DNA of 64,000 nucleotides from Escherichia coli (GTDB taxonomy: Bacteria > Pseudomonadota > Gammaproteobacteria > Enterobacterales > Enterobacteriaceae). The stretch's first letter is position 1. Each line of letters opens with the position of its first letter. Shown in pieces: positions 4,588 to 34,403 of this stretch. The stretch lies in NCBI RefSeq assembly GCF_002854065.1, contig NZ_CP024147.1; one strand, 5' to 3'. Both the position numbers and the translations under genes were made by a program. The notes beneath the pieces are model-generated. The model worked only from the letters and a program-made list of their open reading frames with translations. It had not been told where the DNA came from and searched no databases.

Positions 4588-6909
4588 ATGAAAAAATTAA
4601 CCATAGGCTTAATTGGTAATCCAAATTCTGGCAAGACAACCTTATTTAACCAGCTCACTGGCGCACGTCAGCGTGTAGGTAACTGGGCTGGCGTTACCGT
4701 CGAACGTAAAGAAGGGCAATTCTCCACCACCGATCATCAGGTCACGCTGGTGGACCTGCCCGGCACCTATTCTCTGACCACCATCTCATCGCAGACCTCG
4801 CTCGATGAGCAAATCGCCTGTCACTACATTTTGAGTGGCGACGCCGACCTGCTGATTAACGTGGTGGATGCGTCTAACCTTGAGCGTAACCTGTACCTGA
4901 CGCTACAACTGCTGGAACTCGGCATTCCCTGCATCGTGGCACTGAACATGCTCGACATTGCCGAGAAGCAAAATATTCGTATTGAAATTGATGCTCTGTC
5001 GGCGCGTCTTGGCTGCCCGGTGATCCCGCTGGTTTCAACCCGTGGTCGCGGTATTGAAGCGCTCAAGCTGGCGATTGATCGCTATAAAGCTAACGAGAAT
5101 GTGGAACTGGTGCATTACGCACAGCCGCTGCTCAACGAAGCAGATTCACTGGCAAAAGTGATGCCTTCCGACATCCCGCTGAAACAACGTCGCTGGCTGG
5201 GCCTGCAAATGCTGGAAGGCGATATCTACAGCCGCGCCTACGCCGGTGAAGCGTCGCAGCATCTTGATGCCGCCCTCGCCCGTCTGCGTAATGAGATGGA
5301 CGATCCGGCGCTGCACATTGCCGATGCGCGTTACCAGTGCATTGCTGCCATCTGTGATGTGGTAAGCAACACCCTGACGGCAGAACCCAGCCGTTTCACC
5401 ACTGCGGTAGATAAAATCGTGCTCAACCGTTTCCTCGGTCTGCCGATTTTCCTCTTTGTGATGTACCTGATGTTCCTGCTGGCTATCAACATCGGCGGGG
5501 CGTTACAGCCGCTGTTTGACGTCGGCTCCGTGGCGCTATTTGTGCATGGTATTCAATGGATTGGCTACACGCTCCACTTCCCGGACTGGCTGACTATCTT
5601 CCTCGCCCAGGGCTTGGGTGGCGGTATTAACACCGTGCTGCCACTGGTGCCGCAGATCGGCATGATGTACCTGTTCCTCTCCTTCCTTGAGGACTCCGGC
5701 TATATGGCGCGTGCAGCGTTTGTGATGGACCGCCTGATGCAGGCGCTGGGCTTGCCGGGGAAATCCTTTGTGCCGCTGATCGTCGGTTTCGGTTGTAACG
5801 TACCGTCGGTAATGGGTGCACGTACACTTGATGCACCGCGTGAACGTCTGATGACCATCATGATGGCACCGTTTATGTCCTGCGGCGCGCGTCTGGCTAT
5901 CTTCGCAGTATTCGCGGCTGCCTTCTTCGGGCAGAACGGTGCGCTGGCGGTCTTCTCGCTGTATATGCTCGGTATCGTGATGGCGGTGCTGACTGGCCTG
6001 ATGCTCAAGTACACCATCATGCGCGGTGAAGCGACGCCGTTTGTCATGGAGCTGCCGGTCTACCATGTACCACACGTTAAAAGCCTGATTATCCAGACCT
6101 GGCAGCGTCTGAAAGGCTTCGTTCTGCGTGCTGGTAAAGTGATTATCATCGTCAGCATTTTCCTGAGCGCTTTCAACAGCTTCTCGTTGAGCGGGAAAAT
6201 CGTCGATAACATCAACGACTCGGCGCTGGCTTCCGTCAGCCGGGTGATCACCCCGGTCTTCAAGCCGATTGGCGTGCATGAAGATAACTGGCAGGCAACA
6301 GTTGGCCTGTTTACGGGTGCAATGGCGAAAGAAGTGGTGGTGGGTACGCTCAACACCCTCTACACCGCAGAAAATATTCAGGACGAAGAGTTCAATCCGG
6401 CGGAATTTAACCTCGGTGAAGAGTTGTTCAGCGCGGTAGATGAAACCTGGCAGAGCCTGAAGGACACCTTCAGCCTTAGCGTACTGATGAACCCCATTGA
6501 AGCTAGCAAAGGCGACGGCGAAATGGGTACCGGGGCGATGGGCGTGATGGATCAGAAATTCGGTAGCGCAGCTGCCGCATACAGCTACCTGATTTTCGTC
6601 CTGCTGTATGTACCGTGCATCTCGGTGATGGGAGCCATCGCCCGTGAATCAAGCCGTGGCTGGATGGGCTTCTCCATCCTGTGGGGGCTGAATATCGCTT
6701 ACTCACTGGCAACATTGTTCTATCAGATCGCCAGCTACAGTCAGCACCCAACTTACAGCCTGGTGTGCATTCTGGCGGTTATCCTGTTTAACATCGTGGT
6801 TATCGGTCTGCTGCGCCGCGCGCGTAGCCGGGTGGATATCGAACTGCTGGCAACCCGTAAGTCGGTAAGCAGTTGCTGCGCAGCCAGCACCACCGGTGAT
6901 TGCCATTAA
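4588..6909 (+). CDS. feoB: Ferrous iron transporter FeoB (773 aa), N-terminal G-domain plus polytopic membrane domain
   Basis: ORF 4576..6909; start set at [21 protein letters not shown] (G1 P-loop motif). Confidence 0.96.
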
Positions 6910-7145
6910 TGGCTTCACTTATTCAGGTGCGTGATTTGCTGGCGTTACGGGGCCGTATGGAAGCGGCCCAGATAAGCCAGACATTGAACACTCCACAGCC
7001 AATGATTAACGCCATGCTGCAACAACTGGAAAGTATGGGCAAAGCCGTGCGGATTCAGGAAGAACCTGACGGCTGCCTCTCCGGCAGTTGTAAAAGCTGC
7101 CCGGAAGGAAAAGCCTGTCTGCGCGAGTGGTGGGCGCTGCGTTAA
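6909..7145 (+). CDS. feoC: FeoC (YhgG), winged-helix Fe-S protein (78 aa)
   Basis: [27 protein letters not shown]...[15 protein letters not shown]; its ATG at 6909 overlaps the feoB TAA stop by 1 nt. Confidence 0.93.
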
Positions 7146-7166
7146 CCATACTCCATCGCCTGTTTT

Positions 7167-7202
7167 GAAAAGCCCGGTATGCGTTTGCATCCGGGCTTTT
7201 TT
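7167..7202 (+). terminator. Rho-independent terminator of feoABC
   Basis: AAAAGCCCGG-tatgcgtttgcat-CCGGGCTTTT followed by a T-run. Confidence 0.8.
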
Positions 7203-7347
7203 GCGTGCGGCTTTCCATAAAAATGCAATTCTTGCAGCGCGACGTAAGTTCCTCTGAAAGCGTCTCGCAGGGATGAAAACTCGCTAATGCACAGGTGTGG
7301 AGTGGCGCATAGAGTCGCGGCATTCAAACAACAGGTGAAGGAGCGCC

Positions 7348-8226
7348 ATGAGCAAAAAGCAGAGTTCCACCCCACACGATGCGCTGTTCAAACTCTTTTT
7401 ACGCCAACCGGAGACGGCACGCGATTTTCTTGCGTTTCATTTACCGGCACCCATTCACGCGCTCTGTGATATGAAAACCCTCAAGCTGGAGTCGAGCAGC
7501 TTTATTGATGACGATCTGCGTGAAAGCTATTCCGACGTGCTGTGGTCGGTGAAAACGGAACAAGGACCAGGATACATCTATTGTCTGATTGAACATCAAA
7601 GCACCTCAAACAAACTGATCGCATTCCGCATGATGCGTTACGCCATTGCCGCAATGCAAAATCACCTTGATGCCGGATACAAAACGTTGCCGATGGTGGT
7701 GCCATTGTTGTTTTATCACGGTATTGAAAGCCCCTATCCCTATTCGCTGTGTTGGCTGGATTGTTTCGCCGATCCCAACCTGGCAAGGCAGCTCTATGCC
7801 TCTGCATTTCCGCTGATTGATATCACCGTCATGCCTGATGATGAAATCATGCAGCACCGACGCATGGCGCTGCTGGAGTTAATTCAAAAACATATTCGTC
7901 AACGCGACCTGATGGGGCTGGTAGAACAAATGGCCTGCTTATTAAGTAGTGGATACGCTAATGACAGACAAATCAAAGGGCTGTTTAATTACATACTGCA
8001 AACCGGCGATGCGGTACGTTTTAACAATTTTATCGACGGCGTTGCCGAACGATCACCGAAACACAAGGAGAGTTTAATGACTATTGCGGAAAGATTGCGG
8101 CAGGAGGGGGAACAATCCAAAGCCCTGCATATAGCCAAAATAATGCTTGAATCCGGAGTTCCTCTTGCAGACATCATGCGCTTTACCGGGCTGTCAGAAG
8201 AAGAGTTGGCTGCGGCGAGTCAGTAA
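7348..8226 (+). CDS. rpnA: Rpn-family recombination-promoting nuclease (YhgA/RpnA, 292 aa)
   Basis: 292-aa [36 protein letters not shown]..., transposase_31-like fold recognised by sequence. Confidence 0.9.
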
Positions 8227-8252
8227 AGTTCTGTCTCGCCATTCAAAAGTGC

Positions 8253-9744
<1,492 letters not shown>

Positions 9745-12099: not shown

Positions 12100-14184
12100 C
12101 TACTTCTTCTTCGCTGCAGCTCTGCGCCGTCTGTCCAAATCCTTCAGCAACTTGTTCACGCCATCATCGGCAAACATCGTCTCAAGCGTTGCGGAAAGCT
12201 TGCGTCGCCAGTTTTTATACTGGTAACTGGTGCCAGGAATATTCACCGGTTCGGCCATATCCAGCCAGTCTTCCGGCTGTAGTCCTAACAGAGCACTGTT
12301 ACTGTCGGCAATGTAGCGCTGCAAACCACGGTTCAGCGTCGGCGTCATCGACATCAACGATGCCTTATGCCCGGCACGTTTTGGCAGACAACCATATTTA
12401 TGCAGTGCATCCAGCAGCCCTTGCTTCGCCAGTTCGCGATCCTGATACAGACCGCGCAGTACCACTTCATCCGGATACAGCCCCAGGGTTTTGCCCAGCG
12501 TTAGATCCCCGCTCTCCCAGTAGCCGCGTAGCGTAGGCAGGTCATGTGTCGCCGCAACCGCCATCGACTGCTCCGGATACGCTTTCGGTGCACGGAACGT
12601 CTTCTCGTGGTCGTTTTCGAAATAGAGCACTTTGTAGGAGTACACACCGCTGCTGCGCAGCTTACCGACAATCTCTACCGGTACGGTACCGAGATCTTCA
12701 CCAATCACCATACAGCGATGACGTTTACTTTCGAGTGCCAGAATCGAGAGCAGATCATCCACCGGATAGTGAACATACGCGCCCTGATCTGCCGTCTCGC
12801 CATACGGTATCCACCACAAACGCAGCATCGACATCACATGGTCAATTCGTAATGCGCCGCAGTTTTGCATATTGGCACGCAACAGCTCGATAAACGGTTC
12901 ATAGGCACGCGCGGTGATGATATGCGGGTCCATTGGCGGCAATCCCCAGTTCTGCCCCAACGGGCCGAGGATATCCGGCGGCGCGCCAACCGACGCTTTC
13001 AGGCAATACAGTTCACGGTCGCACCAGGTTTCCGCCCCACCTTCCGCTACGCCAACCGCCAGATCACGATACAAGCCAATCGGCATTTCATAGCCCTGGC
13101 TTATCTCCCAGCAGGCGGCAAACTGGCTGTAAGCCAGCCACTGCAGCCAGAGATAAAAATCAACGTCATCGCGATGTTCTTCGCAGAACTGACGCACTTC
13201 TGGTGAATCCACGTTCTGATACATCTCTGGCCATGCAGGCCAGCCCCAGCGCATTTCGTCCTCTTTCACTTGCTGGGCATGTAGCGCATCAAAGGCTGCC
13301 TGCCAGAACAGGCTGTCGCCTTGATCTGCAACAAACTGGCGAAACGCGGCCATCTGCTCATCATCACGTTGCGCGAAACCTTTCCACGCCATTCGTAATG
13401 CTGTCATTTTTAGGGCGGTAACCGTGGAGTAATCGACCCAGTCGGCATCCCGCGCCTGTTGCAGCGTCTGTTGCGTGGTCGGCAACTGCCACCAGGCCTG
13501 AGCCTCTTCGCTAAGATGGAAATCTTCGACGGCGTTAACGTCGATATAAATCACATTCAGCCAACGGCGAGAAGACGGGCTGTATGGGCTGGCGCTCTCC
13601 GGATTTGCCGGATAGAGCGCATGAATCGGGTTCAGGCCGATGAACGACCCGCCACGTTTTGCCACATCCACCAGCATCGCTTTGAGATCGCCAAAATCCC
13701 CAATACCCCAGTTTTTTTCCGATCGCAGCGTATAAAGCTGGACGCAGGCACCCCACAGCTTTTGTTTATTCAGCAACGCCTGCGGTTCGTAACAGCGTTT
13801 CGGGGCGACAATCACCCTGCAATGCGCGCGCTGGTCTTCCTGGGTAAGCGTCAGCGTGTGATAACCTTCCGGCAGCTTCGTCGGTAGATTGAACGCTTTG
13901 CCCCCAGTTACATGGCCTTTGTACTGCGTTCCTTCTTCGGTGGTCAGCAGCCAGCTATATTCGCCGCTGCCCTCCACCACCATCGGCATTTTTTTGCCGC
14001 TGGTATAAACCATGACATTCGGGACTGGCGTTACCGCCACTTTCGTGGCGGTACGTTGATGCATCGCGTCAAGCAAACGCCGTTTGGTTTCGGCGCTAAT
14101 CGACTGCGGTTTACCGTGGGCATTGATGTAATTGGGGCTAATCCCCGCCGCCAGCGCGGCATTATCCAGACGTTTGCTTTCCAT
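12100..14184 (-). CDS. malQ: 4-alpha-glucanotransferase (amylomaltase) MalQ (694 aa)
   Basis: 694-aa ORF MESKRLDNAALAAGISPNYINAHGKPQ... Confidence 0.96.
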   Translation of the reverse strand: MESKRLDNAALAAGISPNYINAHGKPQSISAETKRRLLDAMHQRTATKVAVTPVPNVMVYTSGKKMPMVVEGSGEYSWLLTTEEGTQYKGHVTGGKAFNLPTKLPEGYHTLTLTQEDQRAHCRVIVAPKRCYEPQALLNKQKLWGACVQLYTLRSEKNWGIGDFGDLKAMLVDVAKRGGSFIGLNPIHALYPANPESASPYSPSSRRWLNVIYIDVNAVEDFHLSEEAQAWWQLPTTQQTLQQARDADWVDYSTVTALKMTALRMAWKGFAQRDDEQMAAFRQFVADQGDSLFWQAAFDALHAQQVKEDEMRWGWPAWPEMYQNVDSPEVRQFCEEHRDDVDFYLWLQWLAYSQFAACWEISQGYEMPIGLYRDLAVGVAEGGAETWCDRELYCLKASVGAPPDILGPLGQNWGLPPMDPHIITARAYEPFIELLRANMQNCGALRIDHVMSMLRLWWIPYGETADQGAYVHYPVDDLLSILALESKRHRCMVIGEDLGTVPVEIVGKLRSSGVYSYKVLYFENDHEKTFRAPKAYPEQSMAVAATHDLPTLRGYWESGDLTLGKTLGLYPDEVVLRGLYQDRELAKQGLLDALHKYGCLPKRAGHKASLMSMTPTLNRGLQRYIADSNSALLGLQPEDWLDMAEPVNIPGTSYQYKNWRRKLSATLETMFADDGVNKLLKDLDRRRRAAAKKK

Positions 14185-14193
14185 CGAGCTTCC

Positions 14194-16611
<2,418 letters not shown>

Positions 16612-26935: not shown

Positions 26936-26965
26936 TGAGCTTTAACGAAAGTGAATGAGGGCAGC

Positions 26966-28471
26966 ATGGAAACCAAAGATCTGATTGTGATAGGTGGCGG
27001 CATCAATGGTGCTGGTATCGCGGCAGACGCCGCTGGACGCGGTTTATCCGTGCTGATGCTGGAGGCGCAGGATCTCGCTTGCGCGACCTCTTCCGCCAGT
27101 TCAAAACTCATCCACGGTGGCCTGCGCTACCTTGAGCACTATGAATTCCGCCTGGTCAGCGAGGCGCTGGCTGAACGTGAAGTGCTGCTGAAAATGGCCC
27201 CGCATATCGCCTTCCCGATGCGTTTTCGCCTGCCACATCGTCCGCATCTGCGCCCGGCGTGGATGATTCGCATTGGTCTGTTTATGTACGATCATCTGGG
27301 TAAACGCACCAGCCTGCCGGGATCAACTGGTTTGCGTTTTGGCGCAAACTCAGTGTTAAAACCGGAAATTAAGCGCGGATTCGAATATTCTGACTGTTGG
27401 GTAGACGACGCCCGTCTGGTACTCGCCAACGCCCAGATGGTGGTGCGTAAAGGCGGCGAAGTGCTTACTCGTACTCGTGCTACTTCTGCTCGTCGCGAAA
27501 ACGGCCTGTGGATTGTGGAAGCGGAAGATATCGATACCGGCAAAAAATATAGCTGGCAAGCGCGCGGCCTGGTTAACGCCACCGGCCCGTGGGTGAAACA
27601 GTTCTTCGACGACGGGATGCATCTGCCTTCGCCTTATGGCATTCGCCTGATCAAAGGTAGCCATATTGTGGTGCCGCGCGTGCATACCCAAAAGCAGGCC
27701 TACATTCTGCAAAACGAAGATAAACGCATTGTGTTCGTGATCCCGTGGATGGACGAGTTTTCCATCATCGGCACCACCGATGTGGAATACAAAGGTGATC
27801 CGAAAGCAGTGAAGATTGAAGAGAGTGAAATCAATTACCTGCTGAAAGTGTATAACACGCACTTTAAAAAGCAGTTAAGCCGTGACGATATCGTCTGGAC
27901 CTACTCCGGTGTGCGTCCGCTGTGTGATGATGAGTCCGACTCGCCGCAGGCTATTACCCGTGATTACACCCTTGATATCCATGATGAAAACGGCAAAGCA
28001 CCGCTGCTGTCGGTATTCGGCGGTAAGTTGACCACCTACCGCAAACTGGCGGAACATGCGCTGGAAAAACTGACGCCGTATTATCAGGGCATTGGCCCGG
28101 CATGGACGAAAGAGAGCGTGCTGCCGGGTGGTGCCATTGAAGGCGACCGCGACGATTACGCAGCTCGTCTGCGCCGTCGCTATCCATTCCTGACTGAATC
28201 ACTGGCGCGTCATTACGCACGCACTTACGGCAGCAACAGCGAGCTGCTACTCGGCAATGCGGGGGCGATAAGCGACCTCGGGGAGGATTTCGGTCATGAG
28301 TTCTACGAAGCGGAACTGAAATACCTGGTGGATCACGAATGGGTCCGCCGCACCGACGATGCCCTGTGGCGTCGCACAAAACAAGGCATGTGGCTGAATG
28401 CGGATCAACAATCTCGTGTGAGTCAGTGGCTGGTGGAATATACGCAGCAGAAGTTGTCGCTGGCGTCGTAA
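26966..28471 (+). CDS. glpD: Aerobic glycerol-3-phosphate dehydrogenase GlpD (501 aa)
   Basis: ORF 26951..28471; start set at METKDLIVIGGGINGAGIAADAAGRG (FAD-binding GXGXXG). Confidence 0.96.
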   Translation: METKDLIVIGGGINGAGIAADAAGRGLSVLMLEAQDLACATSSASSKLIHGGLRYLEHYEFRLVSEALAEREVLLKMAPHIAFPMRFRLPHRPHLRPAWMIRIGLFMYDHLGKRTSLPGSTGLRFGANSVLKPEIKRGFEYSDCWVDDARLVLANAQMVVRKGGEVLTRTRATSARRENGLWIVEAEDIDTGKKYSWQARGLVNATGPWVKQFFDDGMHLPSPYGIRLIKGSHIVVPRVHTQKQAYILQNEDKRIVFVIPWMDEFSIIGTTDVEYKGDPKAVKIEESEINYLLKVYNTHFKKQLSRDDIVWTYSGVRPLCDDESDSPQAITRDYTLDIHDENGKAPLLSVFGGKLTTYRKLAEHALEKLTPYYQGIGPAWTKESVLPGGAIEGDRDDYAARLRRRYPFLTESLARHYARTYGSNSELLLGNAGAISDLGEDFGHEFYEAELKYLVDHEWVRRTDDALWRRTKQGMWLNADQQSRVSQWLVEYTQQKLSLAS

Positions 28472-28533: not shown

Positions 28534-28632
28534 TGCCTGATGCGCTACGCTTATCAGGCCTACGTGGTTTATGCAATATGTTGAATTTGCATGATTTTGT
28601 AGGCCTGAGAAGGCGTTCACGCCGCATCAGGA
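28534..28632. repeat. Pair of inverted REP elements (BIME-like) downstream of glpD
   Basis: tgcctgatgcgctacgcttatcaggcctacg and gtaggcctgagaaggcgttcacgccgcatcagg match REP consensus in opposite orientations. Confidence 0.7.
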
Positions 28633-28684: not shown

Positions 28685-29287
28685 TTACCGCAAAGCCCAC
28701 GCCATCATACCCAACGTAACAAAACTCAGGCACGTTCCCCACTCACTCCACTTCCGTATCTGGCTTCTATTTTTGCTACGCCACTGGCAATAATATCCCA
28801 ACGCAAAACCAAGCTGTGCGCTTATTGGACCGATAAAATCCGTCCACGGCTGAGGCCAAAATGGCGAAAAATTCAGGGGTAGCCAGACAACAAGCAGAAA
28901 GAAATTGCGGATACTTTCCAGCAACGCAATTTTCGCTGGCGCGATGTAAAAAATGATATTCCAGAGGATCAACCATAAATAGACCGGTGCGAATACCAAC
29001 CAACAATGGAGCCTGCTTTTCAATTCAGATTGAGTTCTACGAGTAAATTGCCAACCAACGCAACACATTACACAGAAGAAAAGCGCATATTCAGCCGATA
29101 ACCAAAGTTGTAATTGCAGAAGTGAAATACGCCTGATCATGAGCGGGATTGAGAACAGCATTTCCCCCAGAAAACTCAGCGTGATAATACAAGCAGCCAG
29201 CGCAACCACCATCGGCCACACCAACAACGGCACAATAACAAAGCCGAGAAATAACGGATAAATATAAAGTCTGATTATATTCATCAT
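28685..29287 (-). CDS. Polytopic inner-membrane protein, unknown function (200 aa); third gene of the PstS-like operon
   Basis: Hydrophobic ORF MMNIIRLYIYPLFLGFVIVPLLVWPMVVALAACIITLSF... with about 5-6 predicted TM segments; ATG overlaps the upstream gene's stop by 1 nt. Confidence 0.6.
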   Translation of the reverse strand: MMNIIRLYIYPLFLGFVIVPLLVWPMVVALAACIITLSFLGEMLFSIPLMIRRISLLQLQLWLSAEYALFFCVMCCVGWQFTRRTQSELKSRLHCWLVFAPVYLWLILWNIIFYIAPAKIALLESIRNFFLLVVWLPLNFSPFWPQPWTDFIGPISAQLGFALGYYCQWRSKNRSQIRKWSEWGTCLSFVTLGMMAWALR

Positions 29288-30279
29288 TATTGTCCTGATG
29301 ATTCGGGGGATGCTTCATACAGCAGCACATACCCCACATCCTCTACCAACTGTTGCCCCTGCTGACTTATAAACCAGTCAACAAATTTCTGCGTTTCCGG
29401 CGTGGGATTTTCACGCGTCACCATATAGGCATCCACAATGTATGGATAAGTGCCGTTGCGGATATTTTCCTCGGTAGGCGCAACGCCATTTATAGCCAAA
29501 AGTTTAATCTGCTTGCGCATTTTGAGCATATTGTCATTCATACGAGTGACGTAATAGTGGAAGGTGTACCCAATGGAAGATGGCGTGTTTTGATAGTCGG
29601 CAACTTCAGTAATTAAACCGCCCATAAGATCAATCACAGTAGATTTTTTAGCTGGCAGCATTGGGGTGTCTTGCATAACCAATCCCTTCATAATCGTTTG
29701 GCTTCCAGAATCTTCAGGGCGCTGCCAGACTTTTATATGTTCGTCACTACCACCTACTTTATTCCAGCGGCTAGTTTTGCTGCTAAAAATATCTTTAACC
29801 TGGTGCTCAGAGAGAGAATTTACCGGGTTATTAATATCAACGATAAAGACAAAGGCTTCGCGGGCGAAAGCGGTATATTTCAGTTTAACACCCGCTTCTT
29901 CTGCACGTTTTTTCTGTCCTTCCGACGGTTGTGCAACAAAAATAACCGTCGCGGAACCTTTAATCAGACTATCGTAGGCTTCAGCTGTTCGGGTTTGCTG
30001 CAAACCATACGCCTGCCAGGCCAGCGAGGTTCGATCCTTATCTTTTGGCTCGGGTACTAATTTATAATACGCGGAGGCATACAGCGGGTATAAGGCTGTA
30101 GCGCCGTACACTCTCGGCCATCTTGACCAATCATCGCTGTAACGTAATGCAGGTTGCCCCCGCAGAGACGTCAGTCCATGGCTCTCTTCTTCCCTGACGC
30201 TGTTATAGTACCCTTCCCGGTCGACACATCCCGCCAGTAACGCCGTGCCTAATAGTAAAACACCGGTGAATTTATTCAT
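29287..30279 (-). CDS. PstS-like (PBP_like_2 fold) periplasmic-binding lipoprotein (330 aa)
   Basis: ORF 29287..30342; start set at MNKFTGVLLLGTALLAGC (lipobox LAGC); PstS-like motifs GATALYPLY, RPEDSGSQT, SIGYTFHYY. Confidence 0.7.
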   Translation of the reverse strand: MNKFTGVLLLGTALLAGCVDREGYYNSVREEESHGLTSLRGQPALRYSDDWSRWPRVYGATALYPLYASAYYKLVPEPKDKDRTSLAWQAYGLQQTRTAEAYDSLIKGSATVIFVAQPSEGQKKRAEEAGVKLKYTAFAREAFVFIVDINNPVNSLSEHQVKDIFSSKTSRWNKVGGSDEHIKVWQRPEDSGSQTIMKGLVMQDTPMLPAKKSTVIDLMGGLITEVADYQNTPSSIGYTFHYYVTRMNDNMLKMRKQIKLLAINGVAPTEENIRNGTYPYIVDAYMVTRENPTPETQKFVDWFISQQGQQLVEDVGYVLLYEASPESSGQ

Positions 30280-30304
30280 CTCGCTGATTCCTTTCTCTCG
30301 AGCG

Positions 30305-31822
30305 TTATTCCATTGTTGGATACAGCGGCACATATCCCACATCTTCTACCAGACTCTGCCCCTGCGGCGTTAAAAACCATTCGACCAGTTTTTGTGTTTC
30401 TGACGTTGTATTTTCCCTCGTTACCATAAAGGCATCGACGATATAGGGATATTTGCCGTTGCGAATATTTTCCGCAGTCGGTGTAATACCGTTAATCGCT
30501 AGCAGTTTTATATTTTTATCAGCATTCATTTGCGTCGCGTAATAGCGGAAGGTATAGCCTATTGCGTTGTTTGTATTACGGTATTCGGCAACGACTTTAA
30601 TCATTCCCTCCATCACGCTTGCCACTTCCATTTCCTGCGGCGAGATCATGCGGACATTTTTCATGACCTGTGATTGCATCACTGTCTGGCTGCCAGAGTC
30701 TTCCGGGCGCTGCCAGGTCTGGATCTCCTGATCGTTACCGCCAACAGTACGCCAGTTGGTAATTGCACCACTGAAAATGTCACGCACCTGTTGTTCAGTC
30801 AGGGAATTAACCGGATTATCCGCATTGACGATGAAAACGAATGCTTCACGGGCAAAGGGGGTGTACAGCAAAGTGACACCAGATTCCTTTGCACGTTTTT
30901 TTTGCCCACCGGAAGGTTGCGCCACGAAAATAATATCAGCATCGCCCTTAACGATTTTGTTATATGCTTCTGGCGTACGAGAGTTTTCCAGATAATCCCA
31001 AACGTGAAAATCCTCTGGTATTACACTTAATGCATAAAATGCAGAAGCATAAATTGGGTACGCAGCCGTGGCGCCATCGATTCGCGGCCAGTTTTGCCTA
31101 AACTGAATTTGCGGTTTGCCACGCAGCGGCGTCAGTCGATTATTGAGTTTATCGGGTTGCCAGGCCCAGATATCAATATTTTCGCGTACACCGACACCAG
31201 GATTGAGCTGTTTATATAAATAACCCTGATAACCAGCGACAAAACCAAGCATGAGAAGGATAAACAGGAGGGAATTACGGCAACGTAGCCCGGATGTACC
31301 GGTTAAAGGATGTCTGGTTGGCCGGCCGTACCCCAGCGAAAAACTGATATGCGCGCCAACGGGTATAATGACTATCCACCAGTACTCACCTCCGACTACT
31401 GAGACTAACAAAACGCCCAGCCAGGGGAGCATAAGATCAGCCAACCAACCCGATCCCATCTGGTGAAATTGATAATCTGCCAGATGCAGCGCGATTATCC
31501 AGCCAACCAGGATTAATAAAGCGGGTACTAAAAAAAGACATTGTCGCCAGACGGCTATTTCTCTTTTTTCTGGTGCACTATCGCCTGCCCATACTCGCCC
31601 CGAGAAAAATAGCATTAATGCGCCCAGCGCCAGCATAAAAATGTTGAGCAGAAGGTAAATTGTTGGCGTGATAAGGATATTACAAACTTCAATAATACCG
31701 GCAAGTCCGACACCCAGCATAGCAACAACCGCCGCCAAAAATTGCGTCAGTATGGGGATGCCGAAAAAAGTCATTACCAGCGAGGACAAAATCCATTTTC
31801 TGTTTTGCATTATTCTTTCCAT
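30305..31822 (-). CDS. Fusion protein: N-terminal polytopic membrane domain (about 190 aa) plus C-terminal PstS-like binding domain (505 aa)
   Basis: N-terminus hydrophobic (MERIMQNRKWILSSLVMTFFGIPILTQFLAAVVAML...); C-terminal half paralogous to the lipoprotein (GATAAYPIY, RPEDSGSQT, AIGYTFRYY); alternative start at 31810; TATAAT on minus strand at 31840..31845. Confidence 0.65.
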   Translation of the reverse strand: MERIMQNRKWILSSLVMTFFGIPILTQFLAAVVAMLGVGLAGIIEVCNILITPTIYLLLNIFMLALGALMLFFSGRVWAGDSAPEKREIAVWRQCLFLVPALLILVGWIIALHLADYQFHQMGSGWLADLMLPWLGVLLVSVVGGEYWWIVIIPVGAHISFSLGYGRPTRHPLTGTSGLRCRNSLLFILLMLGFVAGYQGYLYKQLNPGVGVRENIDIWAWQPDKLNNRLTPLRGKPQIQFRQNWPRIDGATAAYPIYASAFYALSVIPEDFHVWDYLENSRTPEAYNKIVKGDADIIFVAQPSGGQKKRAKESGVTLLYTPFAREAFVFIVNADNPVNSLTEQQVRDIFSGAITNWRTVGGNDQEIQTWQRPEDSGSQTVMQSQVMKNVRMISPQEMEVASVMEGMIKVVAEYRNTNNAIGYTFRYYATQMNADKNIKLLAINGITPTAENIRNGKYPYIVDAFMVTRENTTSETQKLVEWFLTPQGQSLVEDVGYVPLYPTME

Positions 31823-31894
31823 TCTTTCTGAATGGCGAAATTATACTCCCCGAGTCCCCTTGCCCCTTCTGGACACTTTTCCGAAATGATGGCG

Positions 31895-31921
31895 AAAAAA
31901 ACGGGACCCTTTGGCCCCGTT
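31895..31921 (-). terminator. Rho-independent terminator downstream of glgP
   Basis: Minus-strand AACGGGGCCAAAGGGTCCCGTT hairpin followed by TTTTTTT, immediately after the glgP stop. Confidence 0.7.
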
Positions 31922-31937
31922 CTATTTATTGGTGAAA

Positions 31938-34403
<2,466 letters not shown>

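Follow-up and report, generated by a model that had tools for sequence, protein, structure and literature searches.

PstS-like envelope proteins between glgP and glpD in Escherichia coli: a possible orphan cluster of immunity-type genes against Rhs toxins

What do genes for PstS-like binding proteins do at a place where no transporter accompanies them? The question is raised by a 64,000-nucleotide (nt) stretch of Escherichia coli DNA (assembly GCF_002854065.1, contig NZ_CP024147.1), hereafter the window, in which the interval between glpD and glgP consists of three consecutive minus-strand open reading frames (ORFs), designated here A, B and C. Our main finding is that close homologues of B occupy the position of immunity genes behind Rhs toxins, and that the glgP-glpD junction is a polymorphic cassette site. 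The reading that we favour, while giving it only an even chance, is that the operon is an orphan (toxin-less) cluster of PstS-fold, immunity-type envelope proteins against incoming Rhs toxins, and not a nutrient importer; that B, taken alone, belongs to an immunity-type family we hold to be probable. To date, RefSeq labels the products only as 'PstS family ... substrate-binding protein' or 'hypothetical protein', and our literature search found no characterisation of the A-B-C operon, which agrees with the uncharacterised status given to it in an initial annotation made from the sequence alone.

The evidence that carries this reading comes from the relatives of B. Nine toxin-bearing enterobacterial loci were examined, and every one encodes B-type lipoproteins that share about 62% identity with B, 85 to 270 nt downstream of an Rhs C-terminal toxin and on its strand; two different toxins are represented. 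In Escherichia albertii (locus L018), the gene order is VipA/B, Hcp, VgrG and a PAAR-Rhs gene with a 131-amino-acid (aa) C-terminal toxin after the motif DPLGL; the B-type lipoprotein P0077 starts 84 to 105 nt past the toxin, no other ORF fits between the two, and the next Rhs gene then follows. The succession of an Rhs-core end, the same toxin and a B-type gene recurs, in several different arrangements, in orphan Rhs arrays at six Salmonella loci (L013, L014 and L022 to L025), and once more on contig L026 among ankyrin, PAAR and VgrG fragments. A second B-type paralogue of the Salmonella arrays is preceded, in six loci, by a second toxin unrelated to the first (tox2) or by a 5'-truncated remnant of it. 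In L025, tox2 is joined to the Rhs core (16057-16485) with an in-frame stop interrupting; L013 (7492-7802), L014 and L022 to L024 (about 12871-13183 in these three) hold only the truncated remnants. The motif of tox2 is VGHVF ... KNCTVG, and no Pfam or NCBIfam family or solved structure matched it. In a rough neighbor-joining tree, the Rhs-linked group is the sister of a clade formed by the window's B and related island proteins, and the entire lipoprotein clade is nested within the enterobacterial A-types. As to their surroundings, the L013/L022 array is found near yegS, sseK-like and yegQ genes; it contains PAAR N-terminal fragments, several Rhs-core ends and a Peptidase_M91-like HExxH toxin with a lipoprotein partner, as well as an Ntox34 fragment with a HEAT-repeat partner, and DUF7674.

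The second line of evidence is the junction itself, which has no toxin gene and differs from strain to strain in its immunity-type cassettes and arrays of paralogues. A survey of 5426 complete E. coli genomes found A intact in 3349 (62%), B in 884 (16%, O157:H7 and BLR(DE3) among them) and the full A-B-C block in 882; all copies of A and B are chromosomal, and they are single-copy in the median genome. The species has at least four alleles of the locus. Some keep A and a C-like gene, B being replaced by a gene for 255 aa or by genes for 236 and 255 aa (L004, L002). The 255-aa product, a soluble protein that stands in B's place in many E. coli (L002 2232-2999, L004 2234-3001), gave no match in Pfam, NCBIfam or PHROGs. 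K-12 derivatives carry at the same position only the pseudogene yzgL (b3427; L003 1841-2062), whose 222 nt correspond to the 5' end of A; the initial annotation, too, named yzgL as the K-12 remnant. In strain CUWW06, A is disrupted by an IS1 insertion. A single record, NZ_CP182139.1, agrees with the window at 100% identity over 30305-31813, and it has IS1B inserted inside A.

Other genera show the same pattern of exchange at the junction. In Salmonella and Klebsiella oxytoca, the A-type gene at glgP-glpD is followed by a DUF4279-like gene for 234 aa, by a YbbD_head lipoprotein gene, or by both; the DUF4279-like genes at the junction span 234 to 236 aa. For DUF4279, a role as an immunity family in polymorphic toxin systems has been described (PMC9424270, PMC13304343), and in K-12 the gene for the YbbD-family homologue immediately follows an orphan Rhs fragment situated downstream of rhsD-ybbC. 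E. coli TA054 (L016) combines an A-type gene and two further periplasmic binding protein (PBP) genes, three PBP paralogues in all, with DUF4279-like and YbbD-family genes, and Salmonella enterica subsp. salamae (L012) has two tandem A-type genes (about 6490-7990 and 8001-9524), of which the upstream one is frameshifted close to the 3' end and is missing from the gene calls. Some island alleles, those of TA054 and Pseudocitrobacter, also encode secreted proteins of 141 to 142 aa composed of Y-R-D-x-N-G-N-x-x-G-T repeats (Table 1). A-type genes are also inserted at unrelated sites: a lone one between purB and phoPQ in Rahnella, and a distant one (P0101, L015 8001-10193) between ruvC and yebB in one Salmonella. 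YebB is a Peptidase_C92 protein of the permuted-papain class, the fold class tentatively given below to the first toxin; this may be coincidence. No transporter genes flank A-type or B-type genes at any locus examined. The glp-glg region is named as a variable hotspot in a 2026 genotyping paper, which offers no functional analysis of it.

Such variability raises the question of whether the block is simply what decay has left of an old insertion and now lacks any function. The K-12 pseudogene, the internally deleted or frameshifted copies in other genera and the IS1 insertion in CUWW06 would all suit that explanation, but we regard it as very improbable. The frames are intact, and the ratio of non-synonymous to synonymous divergence (dN/dS) is 0.12 to 0.18 for A and 0.21 to 0.25 for C at a dS of about 0.8 (up to 0.9), compared with 0.02 to 0.05 for glpD; these values indicate purifying selection and therefore argue that A, B and C are not chance ORFs. 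The gene arrangement, with a gap of 25 nt between A and B and a single nucleotide shared by the stop of B and the start of C, is suited to translational coupling, the fold prediction is confident, and the block is retained in 882 genomes. Judged from their sequences, all three genes appear functional, yet the locus is far more diverged than its flanks. Its G+C content is 43 to 50%, against 50 to 57% in the flanks.

The anatomy of the operon is as the initial annotation had it: according to the ORFs and Pfam, a fusion of a membrane domain with a PstS-like domain (A), a PstS-like lipoprotein (B) and a 200-aa membrane protein (C). The Pfam family PBP_like_2 (PF12849) matches residues 247-485 of A (1.3e-30) and likewise B (1.2e-28), and the two binding domains share 58% identity over 286 aa. 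An AlphaFold model of A derived from 69 homologues (mean pLDDT 88.5) places an alpha/beta domain after six predicted helices (residues 2-43, 49-77, 83-110, 120-140, 145-165 and 173-202). The best Foldseek matches of that domain are the type-2 PstS structures 9l8j, 4gd5 and 4q8r, at a target TM-score of 0.76 to 0.79 and an identity of 20 to 23%. The lipobox cysteine of B is present in most aligned B-type homologues. Annotated A comprises 502 aa in most E. coli, its start being the ATG codon that precedes the ATG at 31810; the window reads ATA there (31811-31813), and the probable start of translation is the next codon or the ATG at 31822.

C has no Pfam family. In a set of 120 sequences, its hidden Markov model matches several A-family proteins in their N-terminal membrane domains (lowest E 5e-10), and hhalign aligns it with the membrane domain of A at a probability of 98% (E 9e-14, 170 columns). 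From this profile-profile match we interpret C as a paralogue of A's anchor that ends where A's binding domain would begin. A word-indexed protein search found C in Escherichia only. C was also considered as a YbbD_head protein, which was ruled out, the YbbD_head proteins of Salmonella and Klebsiella being unrelated lipoproteins. An A-type gene of Pseudocitrobacter (L019 11002-12057), located after a B-type gene, has a large internal deletion in its binding domain; it is likely an intermediate toward a C-like, anchor-only protein, and suggests a route by which C arose.

Could A and B nevertheless serve transport, as orphan binding proteins that supply PstCAB or another, distant ATP-binding cassette (ABC) importer in trans with phosphate or a similar anion? 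RefSeq names both as PstS family, and both match PF12849 and the NCBIfam model TIGR02136. However, the TIGR02136 scores, 123.4 bits for A and 113.4 bits for B, are about half of the curated cut-off of 206.6, identity to solved PstS structures is about 20%, the six-helix anchor is unlike PstC or PstA and has, with its lone copy C, no place in a Pst system, and the nearest relatives of B are linked to Rhs. We consider this delivery in trans quite improbable, although somewhat less so than decay. The glpD-glgP interval holds no ABC permease, ATPase, kinase or regulator, so the lack of transporter partners reported in the initial annotation stands. Since A and B fail the TIGR02136 cut-off and have no pst operon context, we do not file them as phosphate-transport binding proteins. 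The PHROGs matches of A and B are limited to one unspecific phage family, 'phosphate transporter subunit', and C has none; the anti-phage defence models of PADLOC gave zero matches for the three.

If the Rhs linkage is to inform the operon, the nature of the toxin matters. The first toxin is a domain of about 125 aa that no Pfam or NCBIfam model matched. A word-indexed protein search retrieved only three proteins with it, and an exhaustive search of 1.84 billion representative proteins retrieved 215 clusters at 50% identity. Among the best 150 of the 215 clusters, the domain is C-terminal in almost all, in proteins of 66 to 2389 aa, and often comes directly after DPxGL. Its invariant residues are H27, S44-W45-G46, D61, H100, N102, N108-C109-K110 and E112. 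We read it as a genuine polymorphic-toxin domain, of a new family characterised by Cys and His residues. Its structure model has a pLDDT of 89.8, and a permuted papain fold (NlpC/P60-LRAT-like) may be tentatively proposed; the assignment is tentative because Foldseek returned nothing significant for the model. In the 5426 complete E. coli genomes, blastn found zero matches to the toxin DNA (at about 65 to 70% identity or more), and tblastn found zero in plasmids.

A scan with 12 toxin sequences yielded 48 metagenome loci (L027 to L074), and here the partner of the toxin differs. A polytopic membrane protein of about 100 aa is encoded just downstream of the toxin in 32 of the 48; its C-terminus reads N-x-[Y/R/W]-G-[S/G/T] (for examples, see L028 571-858 and L037 6378-6674), and it is presumably the toxin's usual immunity protein. 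This family is absent from the enterobacterial loci. Kinship of the small protein with the membrane domain of A or with C was examined and rejected (hhalign probability of 1% or less). The toxin has, then, two non-homologous partners, both of them envelope proteins, which points to an action in the periplasm or at the membrane.

On the reading that we favour, a neighbouring cell would inject an Rhs effector through its type VI secretion system, and the released C-terminal toxin, a putative small Cys/His enzyme, would exert its effect in the periplasm or on the surface of the membrane. There, the PstS-like domains of B and A would bind and block it. B would be exported and lipid-anchored in the periplasm, A would display its 58%-identical domain on a polytopic inner-membrane anchor, and C would be a lone copy of that anchor. 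A toxin-less E. coli might retain the genes as a shield against attackers such as E. albertii and Salmonella. Gene anatomy, paralogy, cassette polymorphism and the linkage of B-type homologues to two Rhs toxins in the immunity position are direct observations; we infer from them the neutralisation, its periplasmic site and the sharing of B's role by A and C. In favour of this scheme we count the tandem paralogues, the presence/absence polymorphism, the insertions at unrelated sites, the other immunity-type genes at the junction, the lack of ABC partner genes and the scores well under the PstS family cut-off. The polymorphic cassette site, the paralogy of C and A's anchor and the Rhs-linked relatives of B are new with respect to the initial annotation; its description of the anatomy, the missing partners, the variant motifs and yzgL holds; its framing of the operon as a system for uptake or binding of an oxyanion is superseded.

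Several points weigh against the immunity reading. No toxin adjoins A, B or C in the window, the Rhs linkage being through homologues about 62% identical, and immunity as a rule depends on the matching allele; at the loci examined, no A-type gene came directly after a toxin. Outside Enterobacteriaceae, the toxin pairs with the unrelated small membrane protein and not with a PBP-like gene, of which there was none beside the toxin in the 48 metagenome loci, positive controls having been run. The E. albertii Rhs gene falls into two overlapping ORFs in the assembly from which it was read, and it may be inactive. The modelled topology of A is ambiguous: over the 69 homologues, the N-terminus (+1.5), loop 2-3 (+2.2) and loop 5-6 (+3.9) are positively charged, and with six helices the three cannot all be cytoplasmic. 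The A-type appears to be the more basal and widespread form, for which an older housekeeping role is possible. PADLOC and literature searches gave no precedent for a PstS-like immunity protein, nor did the literature yield a description of the toxin domain; the first 300,000 characters of the 2012 polymorphic-toxin survey mention no PstS, periplasmic-binding or solute-binding proteins.

A further point concerns the binding pocket. The motifs RPEDSGSQT, IGYTF.YY and GAT..YP.Y, which the initial annotation had singled out as variants of PstS motifs, are present in both binding domains and are invariant or nearly so family-wide. We take the phosphate-ligating residues of E. coli PstS to be T10, S38, D56, R135, S139, G140 and T141. 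Apart from that of D56, the equivalents of these ligand residues are invariant or near-invariant in 69 A-type proteins, and T61, T98, R187 and S191-G192-S193 of B are invariant in 15 B-type proteins, Rhs-linked copies included. By motif alignment, the position of D56 falls on A116-Q117-P118 in B, none of them acidic. The ligand may be an oxyanion other than phosphate, as the initial annotation proposed. A model in which these proteins purely plug the toxin would, on this conservation, leave the PstS pocket unexplained. It is conceivable that a PstS-fold immunity protein keeps its anion pocket and works by capture rather than by plugging. It would bind a phosphorylated envelope molecule that the permuted-papain Rhs toxin needs or makes, the candidates being a phospholipid or lipid-linked head group, or a toxin product; A, the widespread form, would represent the ancestral resistance determinant on the chromosome, and the Rhs-linked lipoproteins would have been recruited from it. 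We consider this variant improbable, less so than delivery in trans.

The same conservation bears on a different explanation, namely that the operon is a native ligand-binding module of the envelope, with A as a membrane-tethered receptor, B as a lipoprotein receptor and no ABC transporter. Its ligand would be a phosphate-like oxyanion or a phosphorylated envelope molecule, and its role sensing, retention or envelope homeostasis; the Rhs-linked B-type genes would be a later recruitment of the fold and tell little about A, B and C. At the pocket-motif equivalents, 84 family members show no or almost no variation; the fold matches that of type-2 PstS structures with phosphate bound, and the basal A-type is widespread across Enterobacterales and under purifying selection. 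In addition, the K-12 yzgL promoter region is entered at -2.0-fold in a table of the Cpx (CpxR) regulon (PMC2731931), and by extension the operon promoter may respond to envelope stress. On the other hand, no partner kinase, regulator or transporter occurs at the loci seen, and the gene is dispensable, being lost in K-12 and IS1-disrupted in CUWW06. A housekeeping receptor would not usually show tandem paralogues, cassette swaps and insertion at unrelated sites; the adjoining genes are of immunity type, and the position of PstS Asp56 is non-acidic. A native ligand-binding role for A is unlikely in our judgement, though less so than the capture variant; the pocket conservation, the basal place of A, its ambiguous topology and the split Rhs gene of E. 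albertii are the reasons to keep it in view.

The coordinates of the features are collected in Table 1. Two palindromes resembling repetitive extragenic palindromic (REP) elements lie between the convergent ends of glpD and C, and an intrinsic-terminator-like hairpin with a T-run lies 3' of glgP; both, already pointed out in the initial annotation, are visible in the sequence. The hairpin would set the operon apart from glgCAP transcription, and a TATAAT hexamer about 30 nt 5' of the start of A could be the -10 element of a promoter belonging to the operon itself. These promoter and terminator signals are read from the sequence by eye only, since a consensus scan of the interval found nothing above shuffled expectation and proposed another, weaker promoter site; a simple terminator scan did not list the hairpin at 31895-31920. 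The window contains no Rhs, PAAR or VgrG remnants.

Table 1. Features of the glpD-glgP interval of the window and of related loci
Feature	Position	Strand	Basis or remark
glpD	26951-28471	+	Flank of operon
REP-like palindromes (two)	~28535-28631		GCCTGATGCGCTACGCTTATCAGGCCTAC, GTAGGCCTGAGAAGGCGTTCACGCCGCATCAGG; between convergent ends of glpD and C
Gene C, 200-aa polytopic membrane protein	28685-29287	-	ORF
Gene B, 330-aa PstS-like lipoprotein	29287-30279	-	Starts MNKFTGVLLLGTALLAGC, lipobox; ORF reaches 30342
B lipoprotein signal peptide (putative)	30226-30279	-	MNKFTGVLLLGTALLAG then C18, +2 residue Val; read from translation
Gene A, membrane-anchored PstS-like protein	30305-31810	-	501 aa from ATG at 31810; in-frame ATG at 31822 gives 505 aa (30305-31822)
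A PstS-like (PBP_like_2) domain, predicted periplasmic	30320-31135	-	Pfam and Foldseek
A membrane domain, residues 1-202	31205-31810	-	AlphaFold helices and loop charges
TATAAT hexamer, candidate -10	31840-31845	-	Read from sequence
Terminator-like hairpin and T-run 3' of glgP	31895-31920	-	ACGGGGCCAAAGGGTCCCGTTTTTTT; read from sequence
glgP	31938-34385	-	Flank of operon
Toxin domain, ~125 aa	L018 9501-9893		E. albertii
Toxin domain, ~125 aa	L013 4598-4972		
Toxin domain, ~125 aa	L026 1106-1507		
Y-R-D-x-N-G-N-x-x-G-T repeat protein	L016 6988-7413		
Y-R-D-x-N-G-N-x-x-G-T repeat protein	L016 12636-13064		
Y-R-D-x-N-G-N-x-x-G-T repeat protein	L019 12231-12659		

Should the immunity reading prove true, the automatically annotated names of hundreds of proteins in E. 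coli, Salmonella, Klebsiella and their relatives, O157:H7 and the B/BL21 lineage included, would be wrong. The proteins would make up a new class of immunity proteins, of unexpected structure, that protect from contact-dependent killing. The toxin would define a new family of Rhs toxin domains, for which two non-homologous kinds of immunity partner exist, and the glgP-glpD junction would be an immunity island. Presence or absence of the genes, which K-12 is without, would provide a simple genetic cause of strain differences in type VI susceptibility.

How does the operon compare with known systems? With type-2 PstS (TIGR02136; 4gd5 and 4q8r of Clostridium perfringens, 9l8j or Sll0540 of Synechocystis, 4exl of Streptococcus), A and B share the two-lobe PBP_like_2 fold and the equivalents of Thr10, Ser38, Arg135 and Ser139-Gly140-Thr141, and B is likewise predicted to be exported as a lipoprotein. 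They differ from it by an identity of 20 to 23%, about half the family score, the lack of pstCAB nearby, a non-acidic Asp56 position, the fusion of A to a six-helix membrane domain and the Rhs linkage of their closest relatives. K-12 yzgL is truncated, and the window by comparison has all three genes of the ancestral form. Periplasmic immunity proteins of type VI secretion are, for example, partners of NlpC/P60-type effectors such as TseH, or of the Tae family; the TseH structure 6v98 came up among our structure results. As in those systems, a B-type product with a signal peptide or lipoprotein character is encoded directly downstream, on the same strand, of a type VI-delivered toxin resembling a cysteine hydrolase, and orphan copies without a toxin also occur; unlike in those systems, the putative immunity proteins here have a full solute-binding fold of about 300 aa with the pocket residues kept. 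Orphan immunity proteins of Rhs and other polymorphic toxin systems have been discussed (PMC10539506). Unlike orphan immunity arrays such as rhsD-ybbC-ylbH-ybbD of K-12, the island occupies a fixed housekeeping junction, glgP-glpD, shows no Rhs, PAAR or VgrG remnant in the window, and has a lead gene, A, that is conserved across several genera; like them, it consists of toxin-less genes with tandem paralogues, cassette replacement and DUF4279-like and YbbD-family neighbours.

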